Source: Chloroflexota bacterium (GTDB taxonomy: Bacteria; Chloroflexota; Limnocylindria; Limnocylindrales; CSP1-4). Taken from it: a stretch of 64,000 bases of DNA. The position numbers and the translations under genes were made by a program. The notes under the pieces were generated by a model. The model was not told the DNA's origin, made no database searches, and saw only the letters and a list, made by a program, of their open reading frames with translations. The DNA lies in NCBI GenBank assembly GCA_046045415.1, contig JBJOLT010000032.1, positions 4,578-68,577 on the forward strand, read 5' to 3'. The first letter of the stretch is position 1. Each line of letters opens with the position of its first letter. Shown in pieces: positions 4,140 through 16,024 of this stretch.

Positions 4140-7100
4140 GTGTCAGGCCCGGCTGGGGGTGGCGTCGCACCGGGCGAAGCGGCCCCGGACCGGTCGGCCC
4201 CCCGGGACGATCTCGTCGGGATCCTGCCGCTCCTCGCCCTCGGGCTCGCCCTCCGGCTCATCATCCTAGCGGTCGCGCCCGGCTCGGGCTTCGCCGTCGA
4301 CCTCGACGCGTTCCGCTTCTGGGCGGCCGACCTCGCGCGGAACGGACCGTTCGGCTTCTACGAGCGGGGCTTCTTCGCCGACTACACGCCCGGCTACCTC
4401 TATCTCCTCTGGCTCGTCGGCGTCATCGGCGGCCTCCTCCGCGGGCCGGAGGTCGCGGCGCTCGGCGACCTCATCAAGCTCCCGGCGATCCTCGCCGACG
4501 TCGCCGTCGCGTGGCTGATCCGGTCGCTCGCGATCGAGCTCGGCGCGACGAACCGGCGCGCGCTCGCCGCCGCCGCGCTCTTCCTCCTCTTCCCCGTCTC
4601 GTGGTTCGACAGCGCCCTCTGGGGCCAGGTCGACTCGGTCGGCGTCGTCTTCCTGCTGCTCGGGGTCCGGTCGATCTGGCGCGGGAACGCGCCGGCCGCC
4701 GCCGTCTGGGCGACGCTCGCGGCGGTCGTGAAGCCGCAGCTCGGGATCCTCGTCCCGATCCTTGCCGCGTGGGTGATCGGCCGCCTCCTCGCCGAGCGCC
4801 GGACGGCCGCGCTCGCGGTCGCGACCGCGAGGGACGGCTCCGCCCCGGCGCCCGTCGTCTCGAACCCGATCCGGGCGATCGGCTTCCCGATCCTCGCCGC
4901 CGCCGCGACCGCGACCGCCGCGAGCGCCCCGTTCGGTCTCACGCTCCTCGGGCTCTTCGGCCAGGTCGCATCCGCCGCCGCCGGCTACCCGTATGCATCG
5001 GTGAACGCGTACAACCCGTGGGCGCTCGCGACCGTCGACGGCCGGGGTGTCGTCGCCGACGGCACGTGGGTCCGCGATGCCCCCGGCCTCGCGCTCGAGC
5101 CGTACCTCGCGTTCGGCCCCGTCCCGGCCGTGGTCGTCGGCACGGTCCTCCTCCTCATCGCGATCGTGGCGATCGGCGCCGTCGTCGTCCGCCGACCCAC
5201 CCGCGGCACGGTGATCGCCGCGCTCGCCGTCCTCGCGATCGCCTTCTTCGTCGTCCCGACCCGGGTCCACGAGCGCTATCTCTTCCCGTTCATCCCGCTC
5301 GCCCTCATCCTCGCGGCGCGCTCCGACCGCTGGCGCCTCCCGTGGCTCGCCGGCGCGACGACGACGACCCTCGGGATGTACGTCGTCCTCACGACCCTCT
5401 ACCCGGGGAACCCCGGGATCTCGGACTGGCTCGGGATCGGGCCGGCGATCCGGTCGGCGGCGGGCGTGACGACCCTCGCCCTCATCCACGTCGCGCTGCT
5501 CGCCCGAGGGGTGACGCTCCTCCGCCACCGCGCGATCGACGAGCTGGAGGCCACCCCGCCGGAACCGGCGGCCGCCGCCGCGACCGTGGCCGTGGCGGTG
5601 GCCGCGGCCGACGTGACGCCGGCGCCCGTCCGCGCCGCCCCCGCGCCGCCACCGGCCGTCCCGGAGCCGGTCGGAGCCGCCGCGCCGTCCTGGCTCGAGC
5701 GGCCCGACCCGGCGGATCCCGGCCTCCTCGCCGAGGTCCGCCGCCGCCTCCTCGCGAGGCCGCTCCGCGCCGACCGGAGCGCGGCGCTCGTCGGGGAGCC
5801 GGGCGGGCGACTCGACCGCCTCGACCTGTGGATCGTCGTCGTCCTCGTCGTCCTCCTGCTCGCCGGGCGCGCCCACCGGCTCGAGCAGCCGTACCAGATG
5901 CACTTCGACGAGGTCTACCACGCCCGTACCGCGACCGAGTTCCTCCAGCACTGGCGCTACGGCGAGCCCCACCCCATCTACGAGTTCACGCACCCGCACC
6001 TCGCGAAGTACGCGATGGCCGCCGGGCTCGTCATGTTCGGGGGCGACCGGGTGGTCGCGACGAGCTCGCTCGGGGCGCCGGTGGCCGCGGCCGCGATCGA
6101 GGGCCGCTGGGAGGACCCGCGGCTCCCCGCCGCCCGCGCCGGCGACCGGCTCTACCTCGCGACGGGGAGCGACGTCCGCGTCATCGATCTCGCCCGCCGC
6201 TCGGAGGTCGTCCGGCTCCCGATCCCGGGAGCCCGCTCGCTCGCCGTCTCGTCGCTCCGGCACGAGCTCTACGTCGGGACGGACTCGGGGACGATCCTCG
6301 CGCTCGCGACCGCCGCCCTCGACGACGTCCGCCTCGGGGTCCCGCCGCCGGGGGCCGCGGCGATCCGGACCGTCGCCGAGATCGGCGCCCCGGTCGCGCG
6401 GCTCCATGCCGCCGGCGACGGCGCGACGATCCTCGCGGTCGCCGGCGACGAGGTCGTGGCGCTCGCGAGCGACGGCGGGGCGCCACGCGGGCGGCTCGCC
6501 CTCCCGGGGGCGACCGGGTTCGCCGATGCCGGGACGGCCGAGCTCCTCGTCGCTCGCCCGGCCGAGGTCCCCGACCCGGTCGCCGCCGCCCGGGTCCTCA
6601 CCACGCTCCTCGGCGGCTCGGACGGCAGCTACGTCGACCGTCTCGGCACCGGCGCGGGGAGCGTCACGATCGCCCCCGCCCCTCGCGGCGACCTCCGCGG
6701 CGAGCTCGACGCCGCCCTCGGGGACGGCCGTCTCGCCGGGTTCGAGCTCATCACCGTCGGGCGCGTGGCGGTCGGCGCGACGGACGGGATCGCGCTCGTC
6801 GCGACCGCCGACCCGGTGCTGCTGGAGCGGATCGGGACGACGGAGCCGGTGACGGGCCTCGCCGCGACGACGAACCTCGACGCCACCTACCTCTACGCGG
6901 CGACCGGCGAGTCGCTCACCGTCGCCGTCCTCCCGTCGTCGAGCGACACCGAGGGGCTCGCGCGGGTCTCGACGACGGTGCGGATGCCGGGTGCGGTCCG
7001 GGACGTCGCCTGGAACCCGGCGACGCAGATGATCCACGCCCTCGGCCGCGCCCCCGCCGGGTCCGACGGCGAGACCGTCTACGTCGTGGAACCGCACGGG

Positions 7101-9353
7101 AACGCCGTCTTCGCCGACGCGCGGCTCCCCTTCGCCCCGGCGGCGCTCGTCGTCGACGCCGCTCCCCGCTTCCCGAACGACGACCGCCAGGAGCTCCTCG
7201 CCTTCGCCGCGGACGGGAGCGGCGCGTCGGTCGCGGTCGGCGCCCATGCGTTCGCGTGGCGGCTCCCCGGCGTCCTCGCCGGGCTCCTCGGCTCGCTGGC
7301 CCTCTACCTCCTCGCGAGGATCCTCTTCCGGAGGCGTTCCGTCGCCGTGTTCGCCGCCGTCCTCGCCGGCCTCGACGGGATGCTCTTCGTCCAGTCGCGG
7401 ATCGGGATGAACGACGCGTACGTCGGGGCGCTGATCCTCGCCGCGATCGCGGCGTTCGCCGGTCTCTGGACGGGACGCTGGCGATCGCCCGCCGCGTTCT
7501 GGGTCGTCATGCCGGTCGTCGGGATCCTCCTCGGCCTGGCGCTCGCCGCGAAGTGGGTCGCCCTCTACGCGATCGCGGGGCTCGGCATCCTCGTCCTCGC
7601 CCGGTCGGCGCTCGGACGCGTGATCCTCGTCGGCGGGCTCCTCGCCGCCACCGCGGTCCTCGGCCTCGCGGCGATCTCCGTGCCCGCCGGCGGCACGAGC
7701 GGCGGCAACCTCTCGTTCGTCCTCGCGATGATCGCCGTGTCGCTCGTCGCCGTCGCGATCTCCGTCCTCCGGCCGGTCGCCTGGACCCTCGAGGAGCTCC
7801 GGTTCGCCGTCGCCGCCCCGCTCGCGACCGGTGTCGCGATCCTCCTCATCGGGATCCCGCTCGGGGTCGTCGGGCCCGGGCCCTGCGCCGATCCGGCGGC
7901 ACCGTGTCCCCAGCAACTCCTCCTCGAAGGGGCGTTCGGCCTCGTCGTCCTCTCCGGGCTCGCGCTCGGGGCGGCGCGCCTCGCCGCCGGCGTCGGATGG
8001 GGTCCGCTCGCCGACCCGGGCCGCGCGGCGCTCCGCGCCCTCCCTCCGGCCTCGCCGGCCCCGGAGGGCTGGCTCAGGCTCGGGTCCGGCCGCGGCCTCC
8101 CGGCCGTCTGGCTCGTCGTCTCGCTCCTCGCGATCCCCGTCGCGGTCTACGTCGCCTCGTACCTCCCGTGGGTCGCGCTCGGGAACCGGCTCGTCGAGTC
8201 GTGGCCGCCGGGGAACGCCGGTCAGACGCTCGCCGACCTGACCGCCTCGATGTACCGGTATCACGACGACCTCAGGGCGGCGCACGCCGCCTCGTCCCCC
8301 TGGTGGGCGTGGCCCTTCGACCTGAAGCCGGTCTGGTTCTATCAGGGGGGCTTCGAGAGCGCCACGGCCGGGGCGATCTACGACGCCGGCAACCTCGTCG
8401 TCTGGTGGCTCGCGATCCCCGCCCTCGGGTTCGCCGCCTGGGCCGCCTATCGGCGCCGGAGCCACGCCCTCGCGCTCGTCGTCGTCGCGTTCCTCGCGCT
8501 CTGGCTCCCGTGGGCGCGGATCGACCGGGCGACGTTCCAGTACCACTACTACACGGCGCTCCCCTTCGCGATCCTCGCGCTCGCGTACCTCGCCGCGGAG
8601 CTCTGGCACGGCCCACCCCGCGGCGTCTGGCTCCTCGCGCGGGTCTCGGCGGGGCTCGCGATCGTCGGCCCGCTCCTCCTCTGGCTCCTCCGCCTGCCGC
8701 TCTGCGCGCTCATCCGGGTCGAGGGCGCCAACCCCGGCTCGGAGGCGTGCGCCCTCCTTCCGCCGGGCGAGATCCTCGTCACCGCGCGGACCGCCGGCCT
8801 CCTCCTCGTCGCCCTCGTCGGGGGGCTCATGCTCGTCCGCGGGATCCTCTCCCTCGGGCGGCCCGGCGGACGCAGCACGGCCGTCGTCATCGGCGCGGTC
8901 GTCACGTCCGCGGGTCTCGTCGCCGCCGGCCGGCTCCTCGACGAGACCCCGCTCCTCCGGATCACCGCCTTCCCGCCCGAGGCGATCGCGCTCGTCGCCA
9001 TCGTCCCGGTCGGCTCCCTCGCCTGGCACGTCGCGACGGCGAGCGACCCGCGCCGCTTCGTCGCCGGGATCCTCGTCGCGGCCGCGGGCTGGTTCGTCCT
9101 CTGGTACCCGAACCTCAGCGGCCTCCCCCTCCCGAGCGCGCTCTTCAACGCGTACCAGGGGCTCCTGCCGACGTACCTCTACCCGTTCCAGTTCCCGGTG
9201 AACCTCGACCCCCCGGGCGAGGGGCCGCCGCTCGCGAGTCTCGAGTTCGCGATCCTCGCGCTCGCGATCGCCGGCACGGCGGTCGCCGTCGCGTGGAGCG
9301 CGTCGTCGTGGCGGCTGCCCGGGCGCGGCGGGGAGGCGGGCCCCCCGGCCTAG
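4140..9353 (+). CDS. 1737-aa polytopic fusion: N-terminal GT-C glycosyltransferase module + PMT-type (GT39-like) protein-O-mannosyltransferase module with a large repeat insertion
   Basis: Single open frame with coding GC3 bias throughout. aa 1-470 multi-TM with 'GPFGFYERGFFADYTPGYLYLLW'. An Ala/Pro linker follows, then a TM helix and the PMT loop-1 signature 'HFDEVYHARTATEFLQHWRYGEPHPIYEFTHPHLAKY' (nt ~5899). aa ~640-1050 hold blade-like repeats (LYLATGSDVRVIDL, LYVGTDSGTILAL, ILAVAGDEVVAL, LYAATGESLTVAVL, VYVVEPHGNAVFAD). The PMT TM core follows ('LFVQSRIGMNDAYV', 'YRYHDDLRAAHAASSPWWAWPFDLKPVWFYQ'). Confidence 0.7.
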   Translation: MSGPAGGGVAPGEAAPDRSAPRDDLVGILPLLALGLALRLIILAVAPGSGFAVDLDAFRFWAADLARNGPFGFYERGFFADYTPGYLYLLWLVGVIGGLLRGPEVAALGDLIKLPAILADVAVAWLIRSLAIELGATNRRALAAAALFLLFPVSWFDSALWGQVDSVGVVFLLLGVRSIWRGNAPAAAVWATLAAVVKPQLGILVPILAAWVIGRLLAERRTAALAVATARDGSAPAPVVSNPIRAIGFPILAAAATATAASAPFGLTLLGLFGQVASAAAGYPYASVNAYNPWALATVDGRGVVADGTWVRDAPGLALEPYLAFGPVPAVVVGTVLLLIAIVAIGAVVVRRPTRGTVIAALAVLAIAFFVVPTRVHERYLFPFIPLALILAARSDRWRLPWLAGATTTTLGMYVVLTTLYPGNPGISDWLGIGPAIRSAAGVTTLALIHVALLARGVTLLRHRAIDELEATPPEPAAAAATVAVAVAAADVTPAPVRAAPAPPPAVPEPVGAAAPSWLERPDPADPGLLAEVRRRLLARPLRADRSAALVGEPGGRLDRLDLWIVVVLVVLLLAGRAHRLEQPYQMHFDEVYHARTATEFLQHWRYGEPHPIYEFTHPHLAKYAMAAGLVMFGGDRVVATSSLGAPVAAAAIEGRWEDPRLPAARAGDRLYLATGSDVRVIDLARRSEVVRLPIPGARSLAVSSLRHELYVGTDSGTILALATAALDDVRLGVPPPGAAAIRTVAEIGAPVARLHAAGDGATILAVAGDEVVALASDGGAPRGRLALPGATGFADAGTAELLVARPAEVPDPVAAARVLTTLLGGSDGSYVDRLGTGAGSVTIAPAPRGDLRGELDAALGDGRLAGFELITVGRVAVGATDGIALVATADPVLLERIGTTEPVTGLAATTNLDATYLYAATGESLTVAVLPSSSDTEGLARVSTTVRMPGAVRDVAWNPATQMIHALGRAPAGSDGETVYVVEPHGNAVFADARLPFAPAALVVDAAPRFPNDDRQELLAFAADGSGASVAVGAHAFAWRLPGVLAGLLGSLALYLLARILFRRRSVAVFAAVLAGLDGMLFVQSRIGMNDAYVGALILAAIAAFAGLWTGRWRSPAAFWVVMPVVGILLGLALAAKWVALYAIAGLGILVLARSALGRVILVGGLLAATAVLGLAAISVPAGGTSGGNLSFVLAMIAVSLVAVAISVLRPVAWTLEELRFAVAAPLATGVAILLIGIPLGVVGPGPCADPAAPCPQQLLLEGAFGLVVLSGLALGAARLAAGVGWGPLADPGRAALRALPPASPAPEGWLRLGSGRGLPAVWLVVSLLAIPVAVYVASYLPWVALGNRLVESWPPGNAGQTLADLTASMYRYHDDLRAAHAASSPWWAWPFDLKPVWFYQGGFESATAGAIYDAGNLVVWWLAIPALGFAAWAAYRRRSHALALVVVAFLALWLPWARIDRATFQYHYYTALPFAILALAYLAAELWHGPPRGVWLLARVSAGLAIVGPLLLWLLRLPLCALIRVEGANPGSEACALLPPGEILVTARTAGLLLVALVGGLMLVRGILSLGRPGGRSTAVVIGAVVTSAGLVAAGRLLDETPLLRITAFPPEAIALVAIVPVGSLAWHVATASDPRRFVAGILVAAAGWFVLWYPNLSGLPLPSALFNAYQGLLPTYLYPFQFPVNLDPPGEGPPLASLEFAILALAIAGTAVAVAWSASSWRLPGRGGEAGPPA

Positions 9354-10546
9354 TCGCGGCCCCCCGGCCCCCGGTGCTCGCGGGGCGGCGCGGGCGGGAT
9401 CGGCGCCGTGTGATGCTCGGGCATCGCCCCGCTCGCCGCGAGCCGGCGGATCACGAACCCGTAGTAGGCGTCGACCCGCTCGGTCACCTGCTCCCAGCTG
9501 AACGCCTCGGCACGGGCGAGCCCGCTCGCACCCATCCGCTCCCGGAGCGCTGGGTCGCCGAGGAGGCTCATCGTCGCCGCCGCGATCGCCTTCGCGTCGC
9601 CCGGCGGTACGAGGAGCCCCTGCTCGCCCCGCTTCACGACCCCCTTGTAGCCGTGGATGTCCGACGCGACGATCGGCGTCCCCGCCGCCATCGCCTCGAG
9701 GAGGACGATCCCGAACGACTCGCGTCCCGTGGCGGGCGAGACGTAGACGTCGGCGGTCTTGAAGAGCGCCGCCTTCTCGCGGTCGCTCACCCGGCCGAGG
9801 AACTCGACGCCGCCGAGTCGCCGGGTCGCGACGTAGCGCCGCGCCTCGCGCTCCTGGGGTCCCGAGCCGACGACGAGCAGCCGGCAGTCGCAGTCCGCCT
9901 TCCGCATGATCCGGTAGGCCTTCAGGAGGTGGAGCAGCCCCTTCCGCGGCTCGTGACGCCCGACGAAGAGGACGTTCCGCCGTCCGTCCTGCCAGCGCGC
10001 GACCGGGACCGCGTCCCGATAGCGAGCGACGTCGACCCCGTTCGGGATCACCCGGTAGTCGCCCGGGAAGAAGCGATCGATGAAGTGGCGCGCGGCGGCG
10101 GAGACGGCGATCCGCCCGTGGAGCCGCCGCCCGTAGCCGCCGAGCACGCGGCTCCCGAACTCGTACGACGGCGAGAACCCGGCGTACGCGTGGAAGGTGG
10201 CGACGTTCACGCTCCTCGACTCCCTGAGGAGCACGAGCGAGAGGAAGGGGACGAAGGGCTCGTGGAAGTGAAGGAGGTCGAAGCGCTCTTCGTCGAGCAT
10301 CCGCCGGACCTGTGCGACGTAGCGGGGCGAGAAGGTGATCGTCCCCATCGAGCCGTTCGCCGGGACGCTGAACCCCTTCCCGAGCCGGATGACGTCGCCG
10401 TCCGTCGAGCGCTGGAACCCGTGGCTCGCGGAGATGATCCGGACATCGTGGCCGCGGAGGCGGAGATTCCGGTAGAGGTGCTCGACGTGCTCGTTCACCC
10501 CGCCGGGCGTCGGGTAGATGTACGGCGTGACGAGCCCGATCTTCAT
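9350..10546 (-). CDS. pimA: GT4 glycosyltransferase, PimA-like phosphatidylinositol alpha-mannosyltransferase (start at internal MKIGLV; the 580-aa ORF is over-extended)
   Basis: 'MKIGLVTPYIYPTPGGVNEHVEHL', 'VGRHEPRKG', 'VSPATGRESFGIVLLEAMAAGTPIVASDIHGY' are GT4/PimA-family motifs; PIM-type operon context; ATG overlaps the stop of the upstream PHP gene. Confidence 0.75.
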   Translation of the reverse strand: MKIGLVTPYIYPTPGGVNEHVEHLYRNLRLRGHDVRIISASHGFQRSTDGDVIRLGKGFSVPANGSMGTITFSPRYVAQVRRMLDEERFDLLHFHEPFVPFLSLVLLRESRSVNVATFHAYAGFSPSYEFGSRVLGGYGRRLHGRIAVSAAARHFIDRFFPGDYRVIPNGVDVARYRDAVPVARWQDGRRNVLFVGRHEPRKGLLHLLKAYRIMRKADCDCRLLVVGSGPQEREARRYVATRRLGGVEFLGRVSDREKAALFKTADVYVSPATGRESFGIVLLEAMAAGTPIVASDIHGYKGVVKRGEQGLLVPPGDAKAIAAATMSLLGDPALRERMGASGLARAEAFSWEQVTERVDAYYGFVIRRLAASGAMPEHHTAPIPPAPPREHRGPGGRD

Positions 10547-11376
10547 CGTGCGCCCCCGCCGGCCCCGCCACCGTCGCGGGTGAGGGCCTCGAGGTCGAGG
10601 CGGGCGGGTCGCCGCCGTCCCCCGGGGTAGCCGAGGTCGCGCCCCGTGCCGTCCCGGCGGATCGCGCCGCGGATCCCGTCGCGCGCGTCCCGGCCGTACT
10701 TGCGGAGCTGGCGGCCGAAGGTCCCGATCTGGCCCGCCCCATGGAAGGCGCCGTGCGCGTGGGTACGCCGCTCGAGGATCGCCCGGCGAAGCTCGTCGGC
10801 GCTCCTGCCCGGGAAGGTCGTCCAGCAGCTCCCGATCGCCTCGAGCGTGTGCGCGTCGCTGTTCCCGATCGCCGCGAGCCCGTGCTCCGCGGCGAACCGC
10901 ACGACCCTGCCGTGGAGCGGCCGCCCGAGCGCCGTCGGGTTGAAGGTCTCCAGTCCGTCCGGGTGGACGCGAGGATCCGGATCCCGGAGGAGTCGCTCCA
11001 GCGCCGGGGCCTGAGCGCAGAGCGGGTACGGGACGAGGGGGTGGGCCGGGATCGCGAGGCCACCCTGATCGTGGACCGCGGCGATCGTCCATCGGAGGGA
11101 GCGGAGCGACGGGATCCGCTCCTCGACGAAGAGCGCGAGGAGGTGGCCCCCGAGGGTCGTCACCTCCTCCCCGACGACCACCTCGACCCGGTGGCGCCGC
11201 TCCCTCGCGATCTCGCGCGCGGCGAGCGCCGCATCGATCCGCTCGTGGTCGGTGATCGCGACGACGTCGAGGACCCCCGCCCGCTCGATGTGCTCGAGGA
11301 TCTCGACGACCCCGGCGGTCCCGTCGGAAGCGAGCGTGTGGATGTGGAGGTCGGCGCGGCCGAGCCGGTCGGTCAT
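10543..11376 (-). CDS. PHP-domain metal-dependent phosphoesterase
   Basis: 'ADLHIHTLASDGT...VAITDHE' His-rich PHP signature; start at MTDRLGRADLHIHT overlapping (ATGA) the stop of the acyltransferase gene. Confidence 0.7.
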   Translation of the reverse strand: MTDRLGRADLHIHTLASDGTAGVVEILEHIERAGVLDVVAITDHERIDAALAAREIARERRHRVEVVVGEEVTTLGGHLLALFVEERIPSLRSLRWTIAAVHDQGGLAIPAHPLVPYPLCAQAPALERLLRDPDPRVHPDGLETFNPTALGRPLHGRVVRFAAEHGLAAIGNSDAHTLEAIGSCWTTFPGRSADELRRAILERRTHAHGAFHGAGQIGTFGRQLRKYGRDARDGIRGAIRRDGTGRDLGYPGGRRRPARLDLEALTRDGGGAGGGAR

Positions 11377-12317
11377 CGGTCCGGCACCGCGAGGTCGCGC
11401 CAGATCGGGAAGAAGAGCGACCACCACTGCTCCGGCGCCGTCGCGATCAGCCGCTCGTAGCCGGCCGCCTGGGCGGCAAGGAAGGCGACGACCCGCTCCC
11501 GCAGCTTCCCGGCCGCCGGCGGCTCGACGCGGATCAGCTCGCCCTCGTAGCGGCCGCCCCCGGTCCGGCGGGCGCCCATGACGTACGCGGGCGCCCCGCT
11601 CTCGATCGCGGCGAGCGCCCCGCCGATCGGGAGCGGCGCCGGATGGCCGAAGAACGGGACCTCGACACCGCCGCCGGTCACGTCGCGGTCGGCGACGAGG
11701 CCGGCGATCTCGCCGCGTCCGAGCGCCTCCTCCAGTTCCCGCTTCGCCAGCGCGATCGGGACGATCCGGAGGCCGACGAAGCCGCGCGTCCGCTCGAACC
11801 AGCGCTGGAGGACCGGGTCGGCGAGCGTCTCCATCGGGCAGACGGCCGGACGGCCGAGCCGGCTCGAGAGGTAGATCGCGGGGATCTCGAGCCCGCCGTA
11901 GTGGATCCCCACGAGGATGAGCGCGCCGCCCCGCTCGAACGGCGAGTCACCGGGCTCCGTCGCGAACTCGACGAGCCGCCTCACCCGCTCCGGGGTGAAC
12001 GACGGGGCGCGGAGGACTTCGAGGTAGTAGCGGGCATGGTGCCGGGACGCGGAGCGAAGGAGCGCCTCGAGCGCACGCGGGTCGCTCGCCGCGCGCCGTG
12101 CCGCGTCCGTGCCGCGACCGGTCGCCGCGAGCGACTCGCAGACGCGGCGGAGGTTCCGACGCCCCTGCTCCGCCCGGCGCGGGTCGGCCCGGAGCCAGAG
12201 GTCCCCCGCGAGCTCGGCGAGCGCGACGAGCGGGCGCTCGGGGAGGCGGCAGGCGAGCGCCGACGCCGCGTCGATCGCGAGGCCGCGGAGGCGCTGGCCG
12301 GGTGTGAGGCGGGTCAT
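11373..12317 (-). CDS. lipid acyltransferase of the HtrB/LpxL-LPLAT family (PatA-like PIM acyltransferase), copy 2
   Basis: 314 aa from MTRLTPGQ; conserved 'LILVGIHYGGLEIP', 'PFFGHPAPLPIGGALAAIESGAPAYV', 'EQWWSLFFPIW' blocks typical of lauroyl/myristoyl-type acyltransferases; ATGA overlap with upstream gene. Confidence 0.7.
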   Translation of the reverse strand: MTRLTPGQRLRGLAIDAASALACRLPERPLVALAELAGDLWLRADPRRAEQGRRNLRRVCESLAATGRGTDAARRAASDPRALEALLRSASRHHARYYLEVLRAPSFTPERVRRLVEFATEPGDSPFERGGALILVGIHYGGLEIPAIYLSSRLGRPAVCPMETLADPVLQRWFERTRGFVGLRIVPIALAKRELEEALGRGEIAGLVADRDVTGGGVEVPFFGHPAPLPIGGALAAIESGAPAYVMGARRTGGGRYEGELIRVEPPAAGKLRERVVAFLAAQAAGYERLIATAPEQWWSLFFPIWRDLAVPDR

Positions 12318-13342
12318 CGACCGGGCGCCTGCCCGGCGAGGGTGGCGTCGGCCTCCGGAGCGGCCCGCTCGCCGCTCCCCGGCGGGCGGGCGAGCGCCGC
12401 CTCGAGCCGGTCGCGCTCCGCCGGGTCGCTCGGCCAGATCGGCTTGAAGCTGTACCACTGCTCGGGGGCGGCGGCGATCGTCCGCTCGAGCGCGTCGGCG
12501 ATCCGCTGGGTCGCCGACGCGAGATCGGCCGGGTCGGTCGAGGCGCACTCGATCGGCTCGTCGTGGGTGACGTAGAAGGTGCCGTCCGGGTGCCGGCGCG
12601 AGGTGAACGGCAGGATCGTCGCGCCGGTCTTCGCCGCGAGGTAGGCGGGGCCGGCCGGCAGCATCGTCGGTGCGCCGAAGATCCGGACCGGGATCCCGTC
12701 CGGCTTGTAGCCCCAGTCGACGAGGAGGCCGAGGATCTCGCCGCGCTTCAGGACGGCGAAGACGTCGCGGAGGTTCCGCCACGGGATCAGCTCCACTCCC
12801 CAGGAGCGGCGGACCGCCCGCAGGTGCTCGAACAGCTCGGGGAAGGTCGAGTCGTCGGCGACGACGGAGATCGGCCACCCGTGGCGCGCGATCCCGGCGG
12901 CGATCGCCTCGTTGTTCCCGACGTGCTGGCCGACGAGGACCAGGCCCTTCGAGCGCTTCCGGATCGCCTCGAACGTCTCGAGCCCGGCGAGATCCACCTG
13001 CGCGGCGGCGCGCTCGGGCGGCATGCTCGTCTGGCGGAGGAGCTCGACGATGTAGCGCGCATAGTTCCGGTAGGCCGCGAGCGCGAGCCGCCGGACCCGC
13101 GGGTCGTCCACCGTCGTCCCGAGGACGTGGGCGAAGTTCGCATCGACGAAGCGCCGCTTCTCCGGCCAGAGGAGATAGCCGGCCCTCGTGACGACCCCGC
13201 CGACGGTCCATGCCGGCCGCGGCGGGATCCTCGCGGCGAGCCACTCCGCCGTCCGGTAGAGCCGGAGCGCGGCCCGCTCCACGACCCGCGGTGCGCCGCG
13301 GCGCCGCCGATGCGGCGCCTCGCGCCCGCCGCTCGCCGTCAC
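12314..13342 (-). CDS. lipid acyltransferase of the HtrB/LpxL-LPLAT family (PatA-like), copy 1; deduced GTG start overlapping pgsA-like stop
   Basis: Same family blocks as copy 2 ('LVLVGQHVGNNEAIAAG', 'IFGAPTMLPAGPAYLAAKTGATILPF', 'EQWYSFKPIW'); the upstream part of the 497-aa ORF is Arg-rich shadow sequence. Confidence 0.6.
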   Translation of the reverse strand: MTASGGREAPHRRRRGAPRVVERAALRLYRTAEWLAARIPPRPAWTVGGVVTRAGYLLWPEKRRFVDANFAHVLGTTVDDPRVRRLALAAYRNYARYIVELLRQTSMPPERAAAQVDLAGLETFEAIRKRSKGLVLVGQHVGNNEAIAAGIARHGWPISVVADDSTFPELFEHLRAVRRSWGVELIPWRNLRDVFAVLKRGEILGLLVDWGYKPDGIPVRIFGAPTMLPAGPAYLAAKTGATILPFTSRRHPDGTFYVTHDEPIECASTDPADLASATQRIADALERTIAAAPEQWYSFKPIWPSDPAERDRLEAALARPPGSGERAAPEADATLAGQAPGR

Positions 13343-13971
13343 CGGCCCGGTGCCCCGAGCGAGGCGATCGTCCGCTGCACGGCGGTGATCGTCGCGAGGA
13401 GGGCGATCGCCCCGAGCGAGACCTCGAGCGCCGGGGCCGGATCGTCGGCGAGCCCGGCCGCGACGAGGCCCGCGAAGAGGATCGCGATCCTGATCTCCCG
13501 CGGGGCGAGGCCGACGTTCGCGATGCCGCTCCCGGTGGAGAGGCCGAGCCCCTCGGCCCGGGCGCGCGTGTAGCTGACCATGAAGGCGGCCGCCATCGCC
13601 GCGCCCGCGAGGAGGACGGCACGGTCCTCGCCGGCGGCGAGCGCCCCCGCGAGGATCCCGACGAAGACGAGCGCCTCGCCGGCCCGGTCGCTCACCGAGT
13701 CGAGGAACGCGCCCGCGGGCCCCGCCTTCCCGGTCGCACGGGCGAGCGCACCGTCGAAGAGGTCGAAGACGGCCCCGCCGAGGACGAGGCACCCGGCCGC
13801 GACCCACGCGCCGGATGCGGCGACGACGGCGGCGACGATCGCGATCGCGAGCCCGATGACGGTCAGGGCGTTCGGCGTGAGGCCGAGCCTCCCGAGCGCG
13901 AGCGCCACCGGCGTCCCGAGCTCGCGGACGCGGGCCCGCTGCTCCGGGGTGAGGAGGCTTCCCCGGTTCAT
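13339..13971 (-). CDS. CDP-alcohol phosphatidyltransferase (phosphatidylinositol(-phosphate) synthase PgsA1-like)
   Basis: 210 aa from MNRGSLLTPEQ; hallmark 'GGAVFDLFDGALAR ... GAFLDSVSDR' (D-G-x2-A-R...G-x3-D-x3-D) with 5-6 TM helices; start overlaps (ATGA) the ArsR gene stop. Confidence 0.75.
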   Translation of the reverse strand: MNRGSLLTPEQRARVRELGTPVALALGRLGLTPNALTVIGLAIAIVAAVVAASGAWVAAGCLVLGGAVFDLFDGALARATGKAGPAGAFLDSVSDRAGEALVFVGILAGALAAGEDRAVLLAGAAMAAAFMVSYTRARAEGLGLSTGSGIANVGLAPREIRIAILFAGLVAAGLADDPAPALEVSLGAIALLATITAVQRTIASLGAPGR

Positions 13972-14312
13972 CGCACAGCCCCGTCGGCGAGGCCGAGGAT
14001 CGCCCGTTCGCGATCGGCCATCTCCGCGAAGACCTCCGGCCGGATGCTGCAGACCGTCTCGCGGCCCGTCCGCCGCGTCGCGACGACCCCGGCGATCCGG
14101 AGCCGGCGGACGTGCCAGCTGACGAGCGGCTGCGACCGACCGACGTGGGCGATCAGCTCGGTGACCGTCGCGGGGCCGGCGGCGAGCCGTCGGAGGATCC
14201 GGAGGCGGGTCACGTCGGCGAGGGCGCGATGGAAGCGATGGAGCGTGAGGAGCGGGTCCGCGCCGTCCGTCACCGGCGAGAAGCCGGGGCGGACACCGGC
14301 GGGGGAGGTCAC
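13968..14312 (-). CDS. ArsR/SmtB-family winged-helix transcriptional regulator (no metal-site cysteines in helix alpha3)
   Basis: 'LADVTRLRILRRLAAGPATVTELIAHVGRSQPLVSWHVRRLRIAGVV' HTH pattern of ArsR family; first gene of the PIM-type operon. Confidence 0.75.
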   Translation of the reverse strand: MTSPAGVRPGFSPVTDGADPLLTLHRFHRALADVTRLRILRRLAAGPATVTELIAHVGRSQPLVSWHVRRLRIAGVVATRRTGRETVCSIRPEVFAEMADRERAILGLADGAVR

Positions 14313-14386
14313 GTTCCGTCTCCTCTCCGTGGTCGGCGGCCGGCCGCATCCGGGCCCGACCCGGGTCGCCGCGTCGCCGTCATATA

Positions 14387-14396
14387 AACGCGCGTT
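14387..14396. promoter_or_regulatory. perfect 10-bp palindrome AACGCGCGTT inside an AT-richer patch (catataAACGCGCGTTgattctatc) in the divergent ArsR/MFS intergenic region; candidate operator
   Basis: Read directly; only AT-rich island in this spacer, 20-60 nt upstream of both divergent genes. Confidence 0.4.
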
Positions 14397-14420
14397 GATT
14401 CTATCGGGCCGCCCGCGGGG

Positions 14421-14443
14421 GTGTCGAACCGTACACTCGACAC
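14421..14443. promoter_or_regulatory. inverted repeat GTGTCGA-N9-TCGACAC abutting the MFS start codon; candidate operator
   Basis: Read directly from sequence (gtgtcgaaccgtacactcgacac then gtg start at 14444). Confidence 0.35.
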
Positions 14444-16024
14444 GTGCAGCGCGGCGACCGCCTCGTCCTCCTCGCCGTCGTCGGCGTCTCGGTCCTCCTC
14501 GCGGGGCTCGAGCTGATGATCACCGCCGTCGCCCTGCCGGCGATCCTCGCGGACCTCGCCTCGTGGACCGAGCTCCGGCTCGCCTCGTGGATCGTCAACG
14601 GCTACCTGATCGTCTCGATCGTCGCGATGCCGATCGCGGGCCGGCTCGTCGACCTCCTCGGGGCACGGCCGCTCCTCCTCGGCGCCCTCGCGCTCTTCGT
14701 CGGCGGCTCGCTCCTCTCCGGTGCGGCGCCGTCGCTCGAGCTCCTCATCGCCGGCCGCCTCGTCCAGGGGGCGGGCGGCGGTGCGCTCATCCCCGTCGCG
14801 ACCGCCGCGGCCGCGGAGCTCTTCGACGGCCGGGCCCGGGCCCGGGCGATCGGTCTCGTCGGCGCGCTCACCTTCGTCGGGATGGCGGTGGGGCCGCTCG
14901 CGGGCGCATGGATCCTCGAGCGGGTCGACCCGGCCGGGCTCCTCTCCGCGCTCGGACGCCCCGGGGGTCTCGCGGAGTCGCTCCTCGCCCCGGCCTGGCG
15001 ATGGGTCTTCTACGTGAACGCTCCGATCGGGATCGCGGCGCTCGCCCTCGGCTGGGCGGCGAGCGCCGGCTGGGCGACACCCCGCCGGAGCGGCTCGCTC
15101 GACGCCGTCGGGTCGCTCCTCGTCGCCGGCAGCCTCGCGACACTCCTCGCCGGGGTGACGCTCGCCGACGGGACGGTGGGGAGCCGCCTCCTCGACCCGG
15201 GCCATCCGCCGACGCTCCTCGTCGCGACCGGGCTCGTCCTCGGCCTCGCCGCGGTCCGCCACGCGCTCCGCTCGCCGGATCCGTTCCTCGATCTCCGGAT
15301 CCTCCGCCGGCCGGTCGTCGCCGCGGCGGGGCTCGTCGCCCTCCTCACCGGGTATGCCCTCGCGACCGCGCTCGTCGGGGGCGCGGTCTTCGTCGACCGG
15401 GTCCGCTACGCGGGCCCGGAGACGCAGCAGCTCGTCCTCGGCGCGCTCGGCGGAGCGGCGGCCGTCGCCGCGCTGTCCGCGGGGTTCCTGCTGGACCGGC
15501 TGCCGGCAGGGCCGGTCACGGCGGCGGGCGTCGTCGCGGCCGCGGCCGCCCTCGCGGCGATGGCGGGGTGGGGACCGGCGACCGGGACCGAGACGCTCGC
15601 GGCGGCGATGGCGCTCTTCGGGGCCGGGTTCGGCCTCACGCTCACCTCCCGGTCGGCCGCGGCGATCGAGGCGGCGGGGAGCGGCGCCCGGGGGCTCGCG
15701 AGCGCGACGGTCACCGTCGCTCGGATGGCCGGGATGGCGCTCGGGCTCGCCGTCCTCACCGCGTACGGCTCCACGACGATCGAGCGGCTGAGCGCCGACG
15801 TCTTCGCGACGCCGGAGGCGTACGTGGCCTACCTCCCCGCCGAGCTCCGCGACCGGCCGCTCGAGGACCCGCTCGTGGTGGAGGCGCTCGAGGACTGGGC
15901 CGCCCGCGAGGCCGCCACGGTCCTCGCCGACTGCTTCGCGGTCGGTGCCTTCGTCACGGCGATCGCGATCCTTCCGGCGGTCGCGCTGGGACGACGGCGG
16001 ACTATGCTGGGTGACGATGGCTGA
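14444..16024 (+). CDS. MFS transporter, 14-TMS drug:H+ antiporter (EmrB/QacA-like)
   Basis: 526 aa, repeated TM helices, MFS motif A-like 'GRLVDLLGARPLL', C-terminal extra TM pair. Confidence 0.8.
   Translation: MQRGDRLVLLAVVGVSVLLAGLELMITAVALPAILADLASWTELRLASWIVNGYLIVSIVAMPIAGRLVDLLGARPLLLGALALFVGGSLLSGAAPSLELLIAGRLVQGAGGGALIPVATAAAAELFDGRARARAIGLVGALTFVGMAVGPLAGAWILERVDPAGLLSALGRPGGLAESLLAPAWRWVFYVNAPIGIAALALGWAASAGWATPRRSGSLDAVGSLLVAGSLATLLAGVTLADGTVGSRLLDPGHPPTLLVATGLVLGLAAVRHALRSPDPFLDLRILRRPVVAAAGLVALLTGYALATALVGGAVFVDRVRYAGPETQQLVLGALGGAAAVAALSAGFLLDRLPAGPVTAAGVVAAAAALAAMAGWGPATGTETLAAAMALFGAGFGLTLTSRSAAAIEAAGSGARGLASATVTVARMAGMALGLAVLTAYGSTTIERLSADVFATPEAYVAYLPAELRDRPLEDPLVVEALEDWAAREAATVLADCFAVGAFVTAIAILPAVALGRRRTMLGDDG

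Follow-up and report, generated by a model that had tools for sequence, protein, structure and literature searches.

A six-gene operon in a 64,000-nucleotide stretch of DNA from a Chloroflexota bacterium (contig JBJOLT010000032.1; 'the window' below means this whole stretch, which has a G+C content of about 75%) encodes a PHP-family phosphoesterase that genomic evidence makes a strong candidate, and one readily tested, for the enzyme converting phosphatidylinositol phosphate (PIP) to phosphatidylinositol (PI). PI in bacteria and archaea is made via a phosphorylated intermediate, and the dephosphorylating enzyme has been missing since the pathway was revised in 2009-2010. It is called unidentified in mycobacteria (PMC6506517) and in archaea and bacteria generally (PMC9385802), and the mycobacterial enzyme was still 'long-sought' in a July 2026 preprint that proposes EphE (bioRxiv 10.64898/2026.07.15.738315). 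In Bacteroides, the PIP phosphatase is the PgpA-like protein BT_1525 (PMC9246714), so a preliminary description of this DNA, according to which no gene for this step had been established, holds for mycobacteria and archaea but not for Bacteroides. Full-text searches of the literature returned no paper linking PHP proteins to the step from PIP to PI, and none describing operons for phosphatidylinositol mannosides (PIMs) in Chloroflexota.

The argument starts from a gap in a pathway. Most relatives have in one cluster the genes for the whole route that leads from glucose-6-phosphate to acylated PIM, save for the step from PIP to PI, and the PHP protein is the operon's only unassigned hydrolase and a member of a phosphoesterase family. 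Its gene has remained next to that of the mannosyltransferase PimA despite several rearrangements and is fused to it in one lineage. PimA works on the cytoplasmic face of the membrane. The pocket of PIP synthase opens to the cytoplasm (PMC6506517), so a soluble PHP protein could reach both the place where PIP is made and that where PI is used. The most economical reading, and one that we consider moderately probable, is that PHP is a PIP 3-phosphatase feeding PimA.

The operon and its predicted pathway

The operon occupies positions 9350-14312 of the minus strand and consists of six co-directional genes, the family assignment of each of which is borne out by Pfam (best family and E-value in brackets):

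13968-14312, minus strand: ArsR/SmtB-family winged-helix regulator, 114 amino acids, first cistron, GTG start (HTH_5, 5e-11)
13339-13971, minus strand: PIP synthase, a PgsA1/PIPS-type CDP-alcohol phosphatidyltransferase, 210 amino acids (CDP-OH_P_transf, 3e-13)
12314-13342, minus strand: PatA-like PIM acyltransferase 1, 342 amino acids (Lip_A_acyltrans, 9e-40)
11373-12317, minus strand: PatA-like acyltransferase 2, a paralogue, 314 amino acids (Lip_A_acyltrans, 7e-21)
10543-11376, minus strand: PHP-family metal-dependent phosphoesterase, proposed PIP 3-phosphatase, 277 amino acids (PHP_C, 3e-15)
9350-10546, minus strand: PimA, GDP-mannose:phosphatidylinositol alpha-mannosyltransferase of family GT4, 398 amino acids (Glycos_transf_1, 2e-40)

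The sequence GGAGAGGAG directly precedes the GTG start of the regulator gene, and all five gene junctions, read directly, are four-nucleotide start/stop overlaps (ATGA, GTGA, ATGA, ATGA and ATGA). Order, coordinates and overlaps are as the preliminary description gave them, and the order and overlaps are seen again in related genomes. Nearly all Limnocylindria relatives hold a gene for myo-inositol-phosphate synthase (MIPS) between those for PgsA and the first acyltransferase (for example at 4680-5957 of locus L001; L numbers denote the loci of the survey below), at the point where, in the window, these two genes overlap directly by four nucleotides (13339-13342).

The preliminary description also took the operon to be of the PIM type, an assignment that each of the core enzymes upholds. 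The GT4 protein matches Mycobacterium smegmatis PimA (4N9W, 2GEJ) over its full length (residues 1-365, E 2e-67), compared with 5e-24 for the next GT4 enzyme, 1.7e-22 for PimB' and 9e-21 for MshA-type enzymes, and we identify it as PimA by this similarity, which is clearly above that to other GT4 enzymes; its acceptor specificity is predicted. The synthase finds its best PDB match in M. tuberculosis PgsA1 (6H53, 1.2e-21), and its signature DX2DGX2AR...GX3DX3D is complete, with D70, D73, G74, A77, R78, D91 and D95 aligned to PgsA1 D68, D71, G72, A75, R76, D89 and D93. In PgsA1, the pocket for the phosphate of inositol phosphate is formed by S132, R152, R155, R195, R94, K135 and R137 (PMC6506517), all of which are kept in the window synthase apart from the replacement of K135 by Arg, its inositol-phosphate ligands being R96, S133, Y134, R136, R138, R158, R161 and R200. 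With this pocket intact, the synthase should yield PIP, so that a phosphatase would be required downstream. The two best NCBIfam models for the synthase both fall under their cut-offs (NF040950, archaetidylinositol-phosphate (AIP) synthase, 127.7 against 180; NF045883, PIPSynth, 114.3 against 170), the protein being too divergent to reach them.

Both acyltransferases pass PF03279 (Lip_A_acyltrans), and PatA provides the best PDB matches of the first (1.5e-19) and the sole PDB matches of the second (1.2e-12). For each, the best NCBIfam model is the PIM acyltransferase NF005919, with 149 and 112.6 bits, respectively, against a cut-off of 209, and the second contains an H-x4-E motif. Operons of this kind carry two, sometimes three PatA-like paralogues (three in L041). 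We know of no mycobacterial enzyme to which acylation of the inositol ring of PIMs has been assigned, and the extra paralogue is a possible candidate for this reaction.

Operons for early PIM synthesis are familiar from mycobacteria and other Corynebacterineae, where the order is Rv2614c-Rv2613c-pgsA1-Rv2611c/patA-pimA-Rv2609c. The window operon has the same co-transcribed and tightly packed core of genes for PIP synthase, a PatA-type acyltransferase and PimA, and the best PDB matches of this trio are the mycobacterial enzymes. It differs in that it is without the threonyl-tRNA synthetase, HIT and Nudix genes, and that it has an ArsR-family first cistron, a second PatA paralogue and PHP, to which relatives add MIPS. 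It also differs in the phylum of its host, which the preliminary description had framed as actinobacterial. This framing has to be given up, since the closest PHP homologues show 70-95% identity, and the loci with synteny belong to metagenome-assembled genomes (MAGs) named Chloroflexi, Chloroflexia or Candidatus Limnocylindria/Limnocylindrales, which makes the host a Limnocylindria-like member of the Chloroflexota. PI is a major polar lipid of cultured Ktedonobacteria (PMC12453558), and inositol lipid is thus made in this phylum.

We propose that the operon is an autoregulated unit for early PIM synthesis in Limnocylindria-like Chloroflexota. At the cytoplasmic face of the membrane, PIP synthase would couple CDP-diacylglycerol to inositol-3-phosphate, supplied in most relatives by the MIPS of the same operon, to give phosphatidylinositol-3-phosphate. 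PHP, taken to be soluble, cytoplasmic and equipped with a multinuclear metal centre, would then take off the 3-phosphate to leave PI, which PimA would mannosylate, and the two PatA-like enzymes would acylate the mannosylated product. The PHP gene immediately precedes that of PimA, the two being translationally coupled, and in Thermoleophilia they form one fused gene; in this arrangement, the product may be handed straight to PimA. In a possible variant of this scheme, PimA would act first and PHP would dephosphorylate mannosyl-PIP.

Linkage of PHP to inositol-lipid genes and its fusion to PimA

Homologues of PHP were sought in two ways. A protein search of 1.84 billion cluster representatives returned a broad family, with 5043 members when the threshold was E<=1e-3 and 158 when it was E<=1e-30, and a scan of one genome per GTDB species, seeded with an alignment of 11 PHP sequences, gave 80 loci of 73% to 32% identity. 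Together with L001-L003, this made 83 loci, in which all open reading frames were translated and searched with the proteins of the window operon and the MIPS of L001. In 45 of the 83, PHP is clustered with genes for PgsA, PimA, MIPS or PatA-like proteins. These linked loci belong to five classes of Chloroflexota and two lineages of Actinomycetota and vary in gene order; MIPS is usually part of them, and PHP lies immediately upstream of PimA in most, the exceptions being L041, where a thioesterase gene intervenes, and L040, which has no adjacent PimA. Representative layouts (AT, acyltransferase) are as follows:

Limnocylindria: ArsR-PgsA-MIPS-AT-AT-PHP-PimA
Ktedonobacteraceae (L037, L085), L039 and an Actinomycetes MAG (L033): ArsR-(MIPS)-AT-AT-PHP-PimA-PgsA
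Anaerolineales (L041): a core of ArsR-(MIPS)-AT-AT-PHP-PimA-PgsA, to which a third acyltransferase and, flanking PimA, two extra genes are added
Dehalococcoidales (L032): MIPS-PHP-PimA-PgsA
Thermomicrobia (L043): PHP-PimA-PgsA
Ktedonobacteraceae, one locus (L040): ArsR-PHP-PgsA

The operon in L085 comes from an independent Ktedonobacteria genome and is the same operon again. The extra genes of L041, an Anaerolineales MAG, encode a 4HBT thioesterase between PHP and PimA and a DAO-family FAD oxidoreductase between PimA and PIP synthase (10759-11280 and 12645-13799). In L039 and in Ktedonobacteraceae, the gene after that for PIP synthase encodes a large protein of 660-890 amino acids bearing an NYN nuclease domain at its C-terminus (L037 7216-9531, L039 13377-15362, L040 12088-14772 and L085 10383-12689).

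The 38 unlinked homologues are all at most 42% identical, except for L038 (45%), which lies on a truncated contig. Their surroundings are scattered, with 161 Pfam families among 143 neighbouring genes and none found more than six times, and a direct search of the 38 loci found neither PgsA nor MIPS beside them. A tie of PHP to DNA polymerase or histidine genes was considered and rejected, as neither family is among those that recur in the 143 neighbouring genes. The synteny survey that the preliminary description had called for thus shows PHP recurring beside pgsA, pimA and MIPS genes in two phyla, and speaks against the possibility raised there of a lineage-specific insertion with homologues bound to polymerase or histidine genes. 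In a neighbour-joining tree, which is to be read as indicative, the linked proteins fall mostly into one large and one smaller clade. Unlinked members also occur in archaeal MAGs of Methanosarcinales, Methanotrichaceae, Methanomassiliicoccales, Bathyarchaeota and Halobellus (haloarchaea); the unlinked loci of the archaeal group (L059-L061, L073, L075, L077, L079-L081 and L083) have an identical catalytic core, and L059, labelled Nitrosotalea, has a G+C content of 68% and looks mis-binned.

In two Thermoleophilia species, PHP is fused to PimA: a single open reading frame, downstream of PgsA and MIPS, encodes a GT4 domain followed by a PHP domain, in the layout PAP2_3-PgsA-MIPS-fusion. The best match of the GT4 half is PimA (2e-35). 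The fusion family comprises at least 120 sequence clusters of 57-98% identity and about 630 amino acids, all with both sets of domains. As the fused protein has its domains in the reverse of the Chloroflexota gene order (PimA then PHP, against PHP then PimA), read-through of overlapping genes cannot account for the fusion. Apparent fusions of PHP and GT4 in the Limnocylindria clade (P0128, P0136 and P0144) were discounted, since their domains follow the order of the overlapping genes and a single indel could make them; the Thermoleophilia fusion is the one relied on here. In three Thermoleophilia loci, the opposite strand holds a further PHP_C paralogue, a short one, some 5 kb downstream of the fusion (L084 14133-14798, L076 15607-16047 and L078 15779-16438).

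The PHP protein and competing explanations

The catalytic site of PHP is intact. The motif HIHTxxSDG noted in the preliminary description is present as LHIHTLASDG at residues 10-19, and H11, H13, D18, H44, E71, H78, H112, D140, E143, N146, D174 and H176 are invariant in an alignment of 25 sequences covering 32-73% identity. Of these, H11, H13, D18, H44, E71, H78, H112, D174 and H176 make up the metal-ligand motifs of the superfamily, complete from the HxH to the C-terminal DxH. In the linked loci inspected, the ligands are kept save for H78E in the fusions, where the Glu is possibly still a metal ligand, and Q at H11 in L042. The protein scores 55.8 bits against PHP_C (PF13263; cut-off 21.3) and 22.6 against PF02811 (PHP), under the cut-off of 26.4 that its orthologues pass. 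Its AlphaFold2 model (mean predicted local distance difference test score, pLDDT, 87.5) has alternating strands and helices, and Foldseek relates it with a probability of 1.0 to the PHP structures 3E38, 2ANU, 7UG9, 9ETK and 2YB1. The closest solved neighbours, at about 20% identity, are uncharacterised PHP proteins (3E38, 2ANU, 3E0F), RNase AM, PsfC and the nucleoside bisphosphate phosphatase Cv1693. The curated equivalog models for 3',5'-nucleoside bisphosphate phosphatase and RNase AM are missed by far (NF041577, 31.7 bits against 400; NF047791, 41.9 against 375), the alignments in these NCBIfam comparisons covering just the N-terminal 70 or so residues, and the CehA/McbA domain model gives 64.9 against a cut-off of 80. 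The TrpH/YciV-type proteins (COG0613; RNase AM and Cv1693) thus share with PHP the barrel, the PHP_C module and the full metal-ligand motifs, but at about 20% identity and with model scores far below the cut-offs; their context is RNA or sulfur metabolism, whereas that of the window protein is lipid synthesis, and the latter has in addition a basic C-terminal extension.

No signal peptide or membrane segment was found in the PHP sequence, which begins right at the catalytic motif. The strongly basic extension of 30-65 residues is conserved in the PHP clade (Limnocylindria consensus FGRQLRKYGRDARDE..RRDGTGRDxGYPGGRxRPPRF). We discounted it as evidence of membrane binding, as its net charge averages about +6 in linked and +4.4 in unlinked proteins and its hydrophobic face is small. 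The comparison of linked with unlinked proteins likewise yielded no usable signature of specificity, with solely G151 standing out.

Several points weigh against PHP as the PIP phosphatase. Linked and unlinked proteins share nearly all their conserved residues, with one linked-specific position, and the basic tail could bind nucleic acid instead of membrane. To our knowledge, no PHP-family enzyme acts on a lipid head group. No MIPS gene was found anywhere in the window, so that the MIPS of the source genome must either lie elsewhere or have been lost. The nearest characterised relatives by fold and NCBIfam are two enzymes, RNase AM and the 3',5'-nucleoside bisphosphate phosphatase. In Thermoleophilia and in L042, a Dehalococcoidaceae locus, PHP is accompanied by a membrane protein of the PAP2_3 family, which includes lipid phosphatases, and this protein may be the PIP phosphatase there. 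PHP is also absent from the mycobacterial operon (PMC3229680), and thus cannot be the mycobacterial enzyme by orthology within that operon; with Bacteroides using a PgpA-like enzyme, its role would be lineage-specific.

The relatedness to RNase AM and the nucleoside bisphosphate phosphatase suggests that PHP might instead hydrolyse a soluble nucleotide (3'-phosphoadenosine 5'-phosphate, GDP, CMP or GDP-mannose) or CDP-diacylglycerol in an accessory or regulatory capacity. Fusion to PimA could equally serve to clear GDP, an inhibitory product, and the mycobacterial operon is flanked by genes for an HIT protein (Rv2613c) and a MutT/Nudix GDP-mannose hydrolase (Rv2609c) (PMC3229680). However, the scores against the curated models lie far under their cut-offs, and a nucleotide hydrolase would leave no gene for the step from PIP to PI in a cluster whose other genes cover the way from MIPS to acylated PIM. 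Nor are bacteria known to depend on a special hydrolase for GDP or CMP when they transfer glycosyl groups, and we judge this explanation unlikely. Still less probable is that PHP acts on inositol-3-phosphate as an inositol-monophosphate phosphatase, releasing inositol either for other purposes or to feed a synthase that uses it unphosphorylated. PHP enzymes do cleave small phosphomonoesters such as histidinol phosphate, and PHP adjoins MIPS in the Dehalococcoidales locus L032, but the full inositol-phosphate site of the synthase points to direct use of inositol phosphate, the removal of whose phosphate within the same operon would oppose the pathway, and the constant partner of PHP, as well as its fusion partner, is PimA rather than MIPS.

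There is also a rather small chance that the PIP phosphatase is another protein altogether, either PAP2_3 or an unlinked PgpA, PgpB, HAD or alpha/beta-hydrolase protein, with PHP serving another lipoglycan step or being a nuclease whose presence in the operon is fortuitous. The PAP2_3 gene lies directly upstream of the PIP synthase gene in Thermoleophilia, overlapping its start in L084, and adjoins PHP in L042 (L084 4141-4950, L076 6028-6846, L078 5770-6567 and L042 3851-4969), and PgpB-type PAP2 enzymes remove phosphate from lipid phosphates. PAP2_3 is, however, absent from the PHP-bearing operons of Limnocylindria, Ktedonobacteria, Thermomicrobia and Anaerolineales, and PAP2 enzymes normally have active sites directed away from the cytoplasm, the side of the membrane on which PIP arises and PI is consumed. 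Where it does occur it accompanies PHP instead of replacing it, which suggests separate roles, and phosphoinositol transferases, among them the AUR1-like BT_1522 (PMC9246714), also belong to its family; on these two grounds, we regard it as an add-on function, though it remains a rival. Other protein families have been assigned to this step or proposed for it. BT_1525 of Bacteroides thetaiotaomicron carries out the same proposed step from a gene that likewise lies within an inositol-lipid cluster, by PIP synthase and MIPS, but it is of a fold and family unrelated to PHP (PgpA), and its assignment rests on knockout and complementation with PIP accumulation, whereas that of PHP rests on genomic context (PMC9246714). 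The alpha/beta hydrolase EphE (ML2297/Rv3670), proposed for mycobacteria (bioRxiv 10.64898/2026.07.15.738315), is likewise an unproven candidate, and the case for it also draws on an association with PimA. Its fold differs from that of PHP, its mechanism is non-canonical and its gene lies outside the PIM operon; the evidence for it is a predicted interaction and a mutant lipid phenotype, compared with gene linkage and a natural fusion for PHP. Chance hitch-hiking does not fit linkage in two phyla and a stable fusion.

PHP stands as a candidate PIP 3-phosphatase, strengthened by its linkage and fusion. A wider proposal would make the PHP_C-type proteins a general family of lipid head-group phosphatases that has so far gone unrecognised, in which linked and fused members would be the PIP 3-phosphatases of Chloroflexota and deep-branching Actinomycetota and unlinked ones would do the same elsewhere, including as AIP phosphatases in archaea. 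We think this doubtful; neither AIP synthase nor MIPS was seen adjoining the archaeal PHP homologues.

Operon control, neighbouring genes and wider meaning

The first cistron passes the ArsR family models (NF033788, 73.7 bits against 55; HTH_5, 42.7 against 22). Its single cysteine, C88, lies in the wing, outside the known metal sites, and is conserved among orthologues. In agreement with the preliminary description, which had noted the lack of metal-site cysteines, the canonical metal sites are absent from the protein: there is no alpha3 Cys or CXC motif, nor an alpha5 cluster of His, Asp and Glu. The protein thus shares the fold of the metalloregulators, and its sequence does not indicate metal sensing. 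The recognition helix, SQPLVSWH, is invariant in 30 orthologues. Upstream of the gene lie the following elements:

14422-14427, minus strand: -35 element TCGACA, sigma-70-like, upstream of ArsR
14398-14403, minus strand: -10 element TAGAAT, sigma-70-like
14384-14399, no strand assigned: predicted ArsR operator, a 6-4-6 palindrome (ATCAAC-GCGC-GTTTAT) that overlaps both the -10 element and the point where transcription is expected to start

The promoter, with 10 of 12 matches and an 18-nucleotide spacer, is the sole sigma-70-like site between 9200 and 14600 (one found against 0.1 expected), and relatives have equivalent sites with TTGACA at -35 and TAGCAT, TATTAT or TAGTAT at -10. The operator consensus ATMAAC-N4-GTTKAT has one match in the 64 kb of the window and none in 100 shuffles. 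In many Limnocylindria loci, it follows closely after the -10 element in front of ArsR, frequently in two tandem copies, and Ktedonobacteraceae, Anaerolineales and the Actinomycetes MAG have related forms of it, ATAAAC-N4-GTTTAT. Examples of the conserved palindrome in relatives are L005 5558-5589, L034 5737-5768 and L040 9291-9306. As a scan of the whole window with Rfam gave no match, no riboswitch or known leader RNA is involved. Most likely, ArsR represses this sole promoter by occupying the palindrome that covers the -10 element and the start of transcription.

ArsR heads the operon in Limnocylindria, Ktedonobacteraceae, Anaerolineales and one Actinomycetes MAG, and this layout, with its conserved operator, is ancient. 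The preliminary description regarded a regulator of this family as an unusual first cistron, but such a position is normal for ArsR proteins, and what is unusual is the lipid-synthesis cargo together with the absent metal site. The arsRBC, cadCA and czrAB operons also begin with a winged-helix repressor and have an imperfect palindromic operator overlapping the promoter, but their cargo is metal efflux or reduction, whereas the window operon serves lipid biosynthesis under a regulator with one conserved Cys and no alpha3 or alpha5 site.

Downstream of the operon lies a convergent gene, whose coordinates are given with a provisional start codon:

4140-9353, plus strand: PMT/GT-C-like membrane glycosyltransferase, 1737 amino acids (PMT_4TMC, 4e-13; PMT, 3e-8)

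Its stop codon overlaps that of pimA in a CTAG palindrome (9350-9353), which leaves no room for a terminator between them. The same giant convergent neighbour (1776 amino acids) is found in L001 and L002, and the protein may extend the mannolipid or O-mannosylate proteins. On the other side, a divergent gene for an MFS transporter (14444-16024, plus strand) begins just past the -35 element of the operon promoter and could share the operon's regulatory region. The transporter is a conserved upstream neighbour in L001; several other Limnocylindria loci also have conserved sequence upstream of their promoters, which appears to belong to the same MFS gene.

The window thus holds a known kind of operon carrying a plausible new enzyme function. 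We regard linkage in two phyla, in differing gene orders, together with a natural fusion, as support for PHP as strong as genomics can give, and the PimA::PHP fusion and the compact MIPS-to-PimA operons are ready-made reagents. Were PHP to prove the PIP phosphatase, the mycobacterial enzyme would not thereby be identified, but the PHP superfamily would gain a lipid substrate and the step from PIP to PI a third unrelated solution. A route to PI and PIMs in heterologous hosts would follow, and PIM-type glycolipid synthesis would be documented as a conserved trait of soil Chloroflexota.

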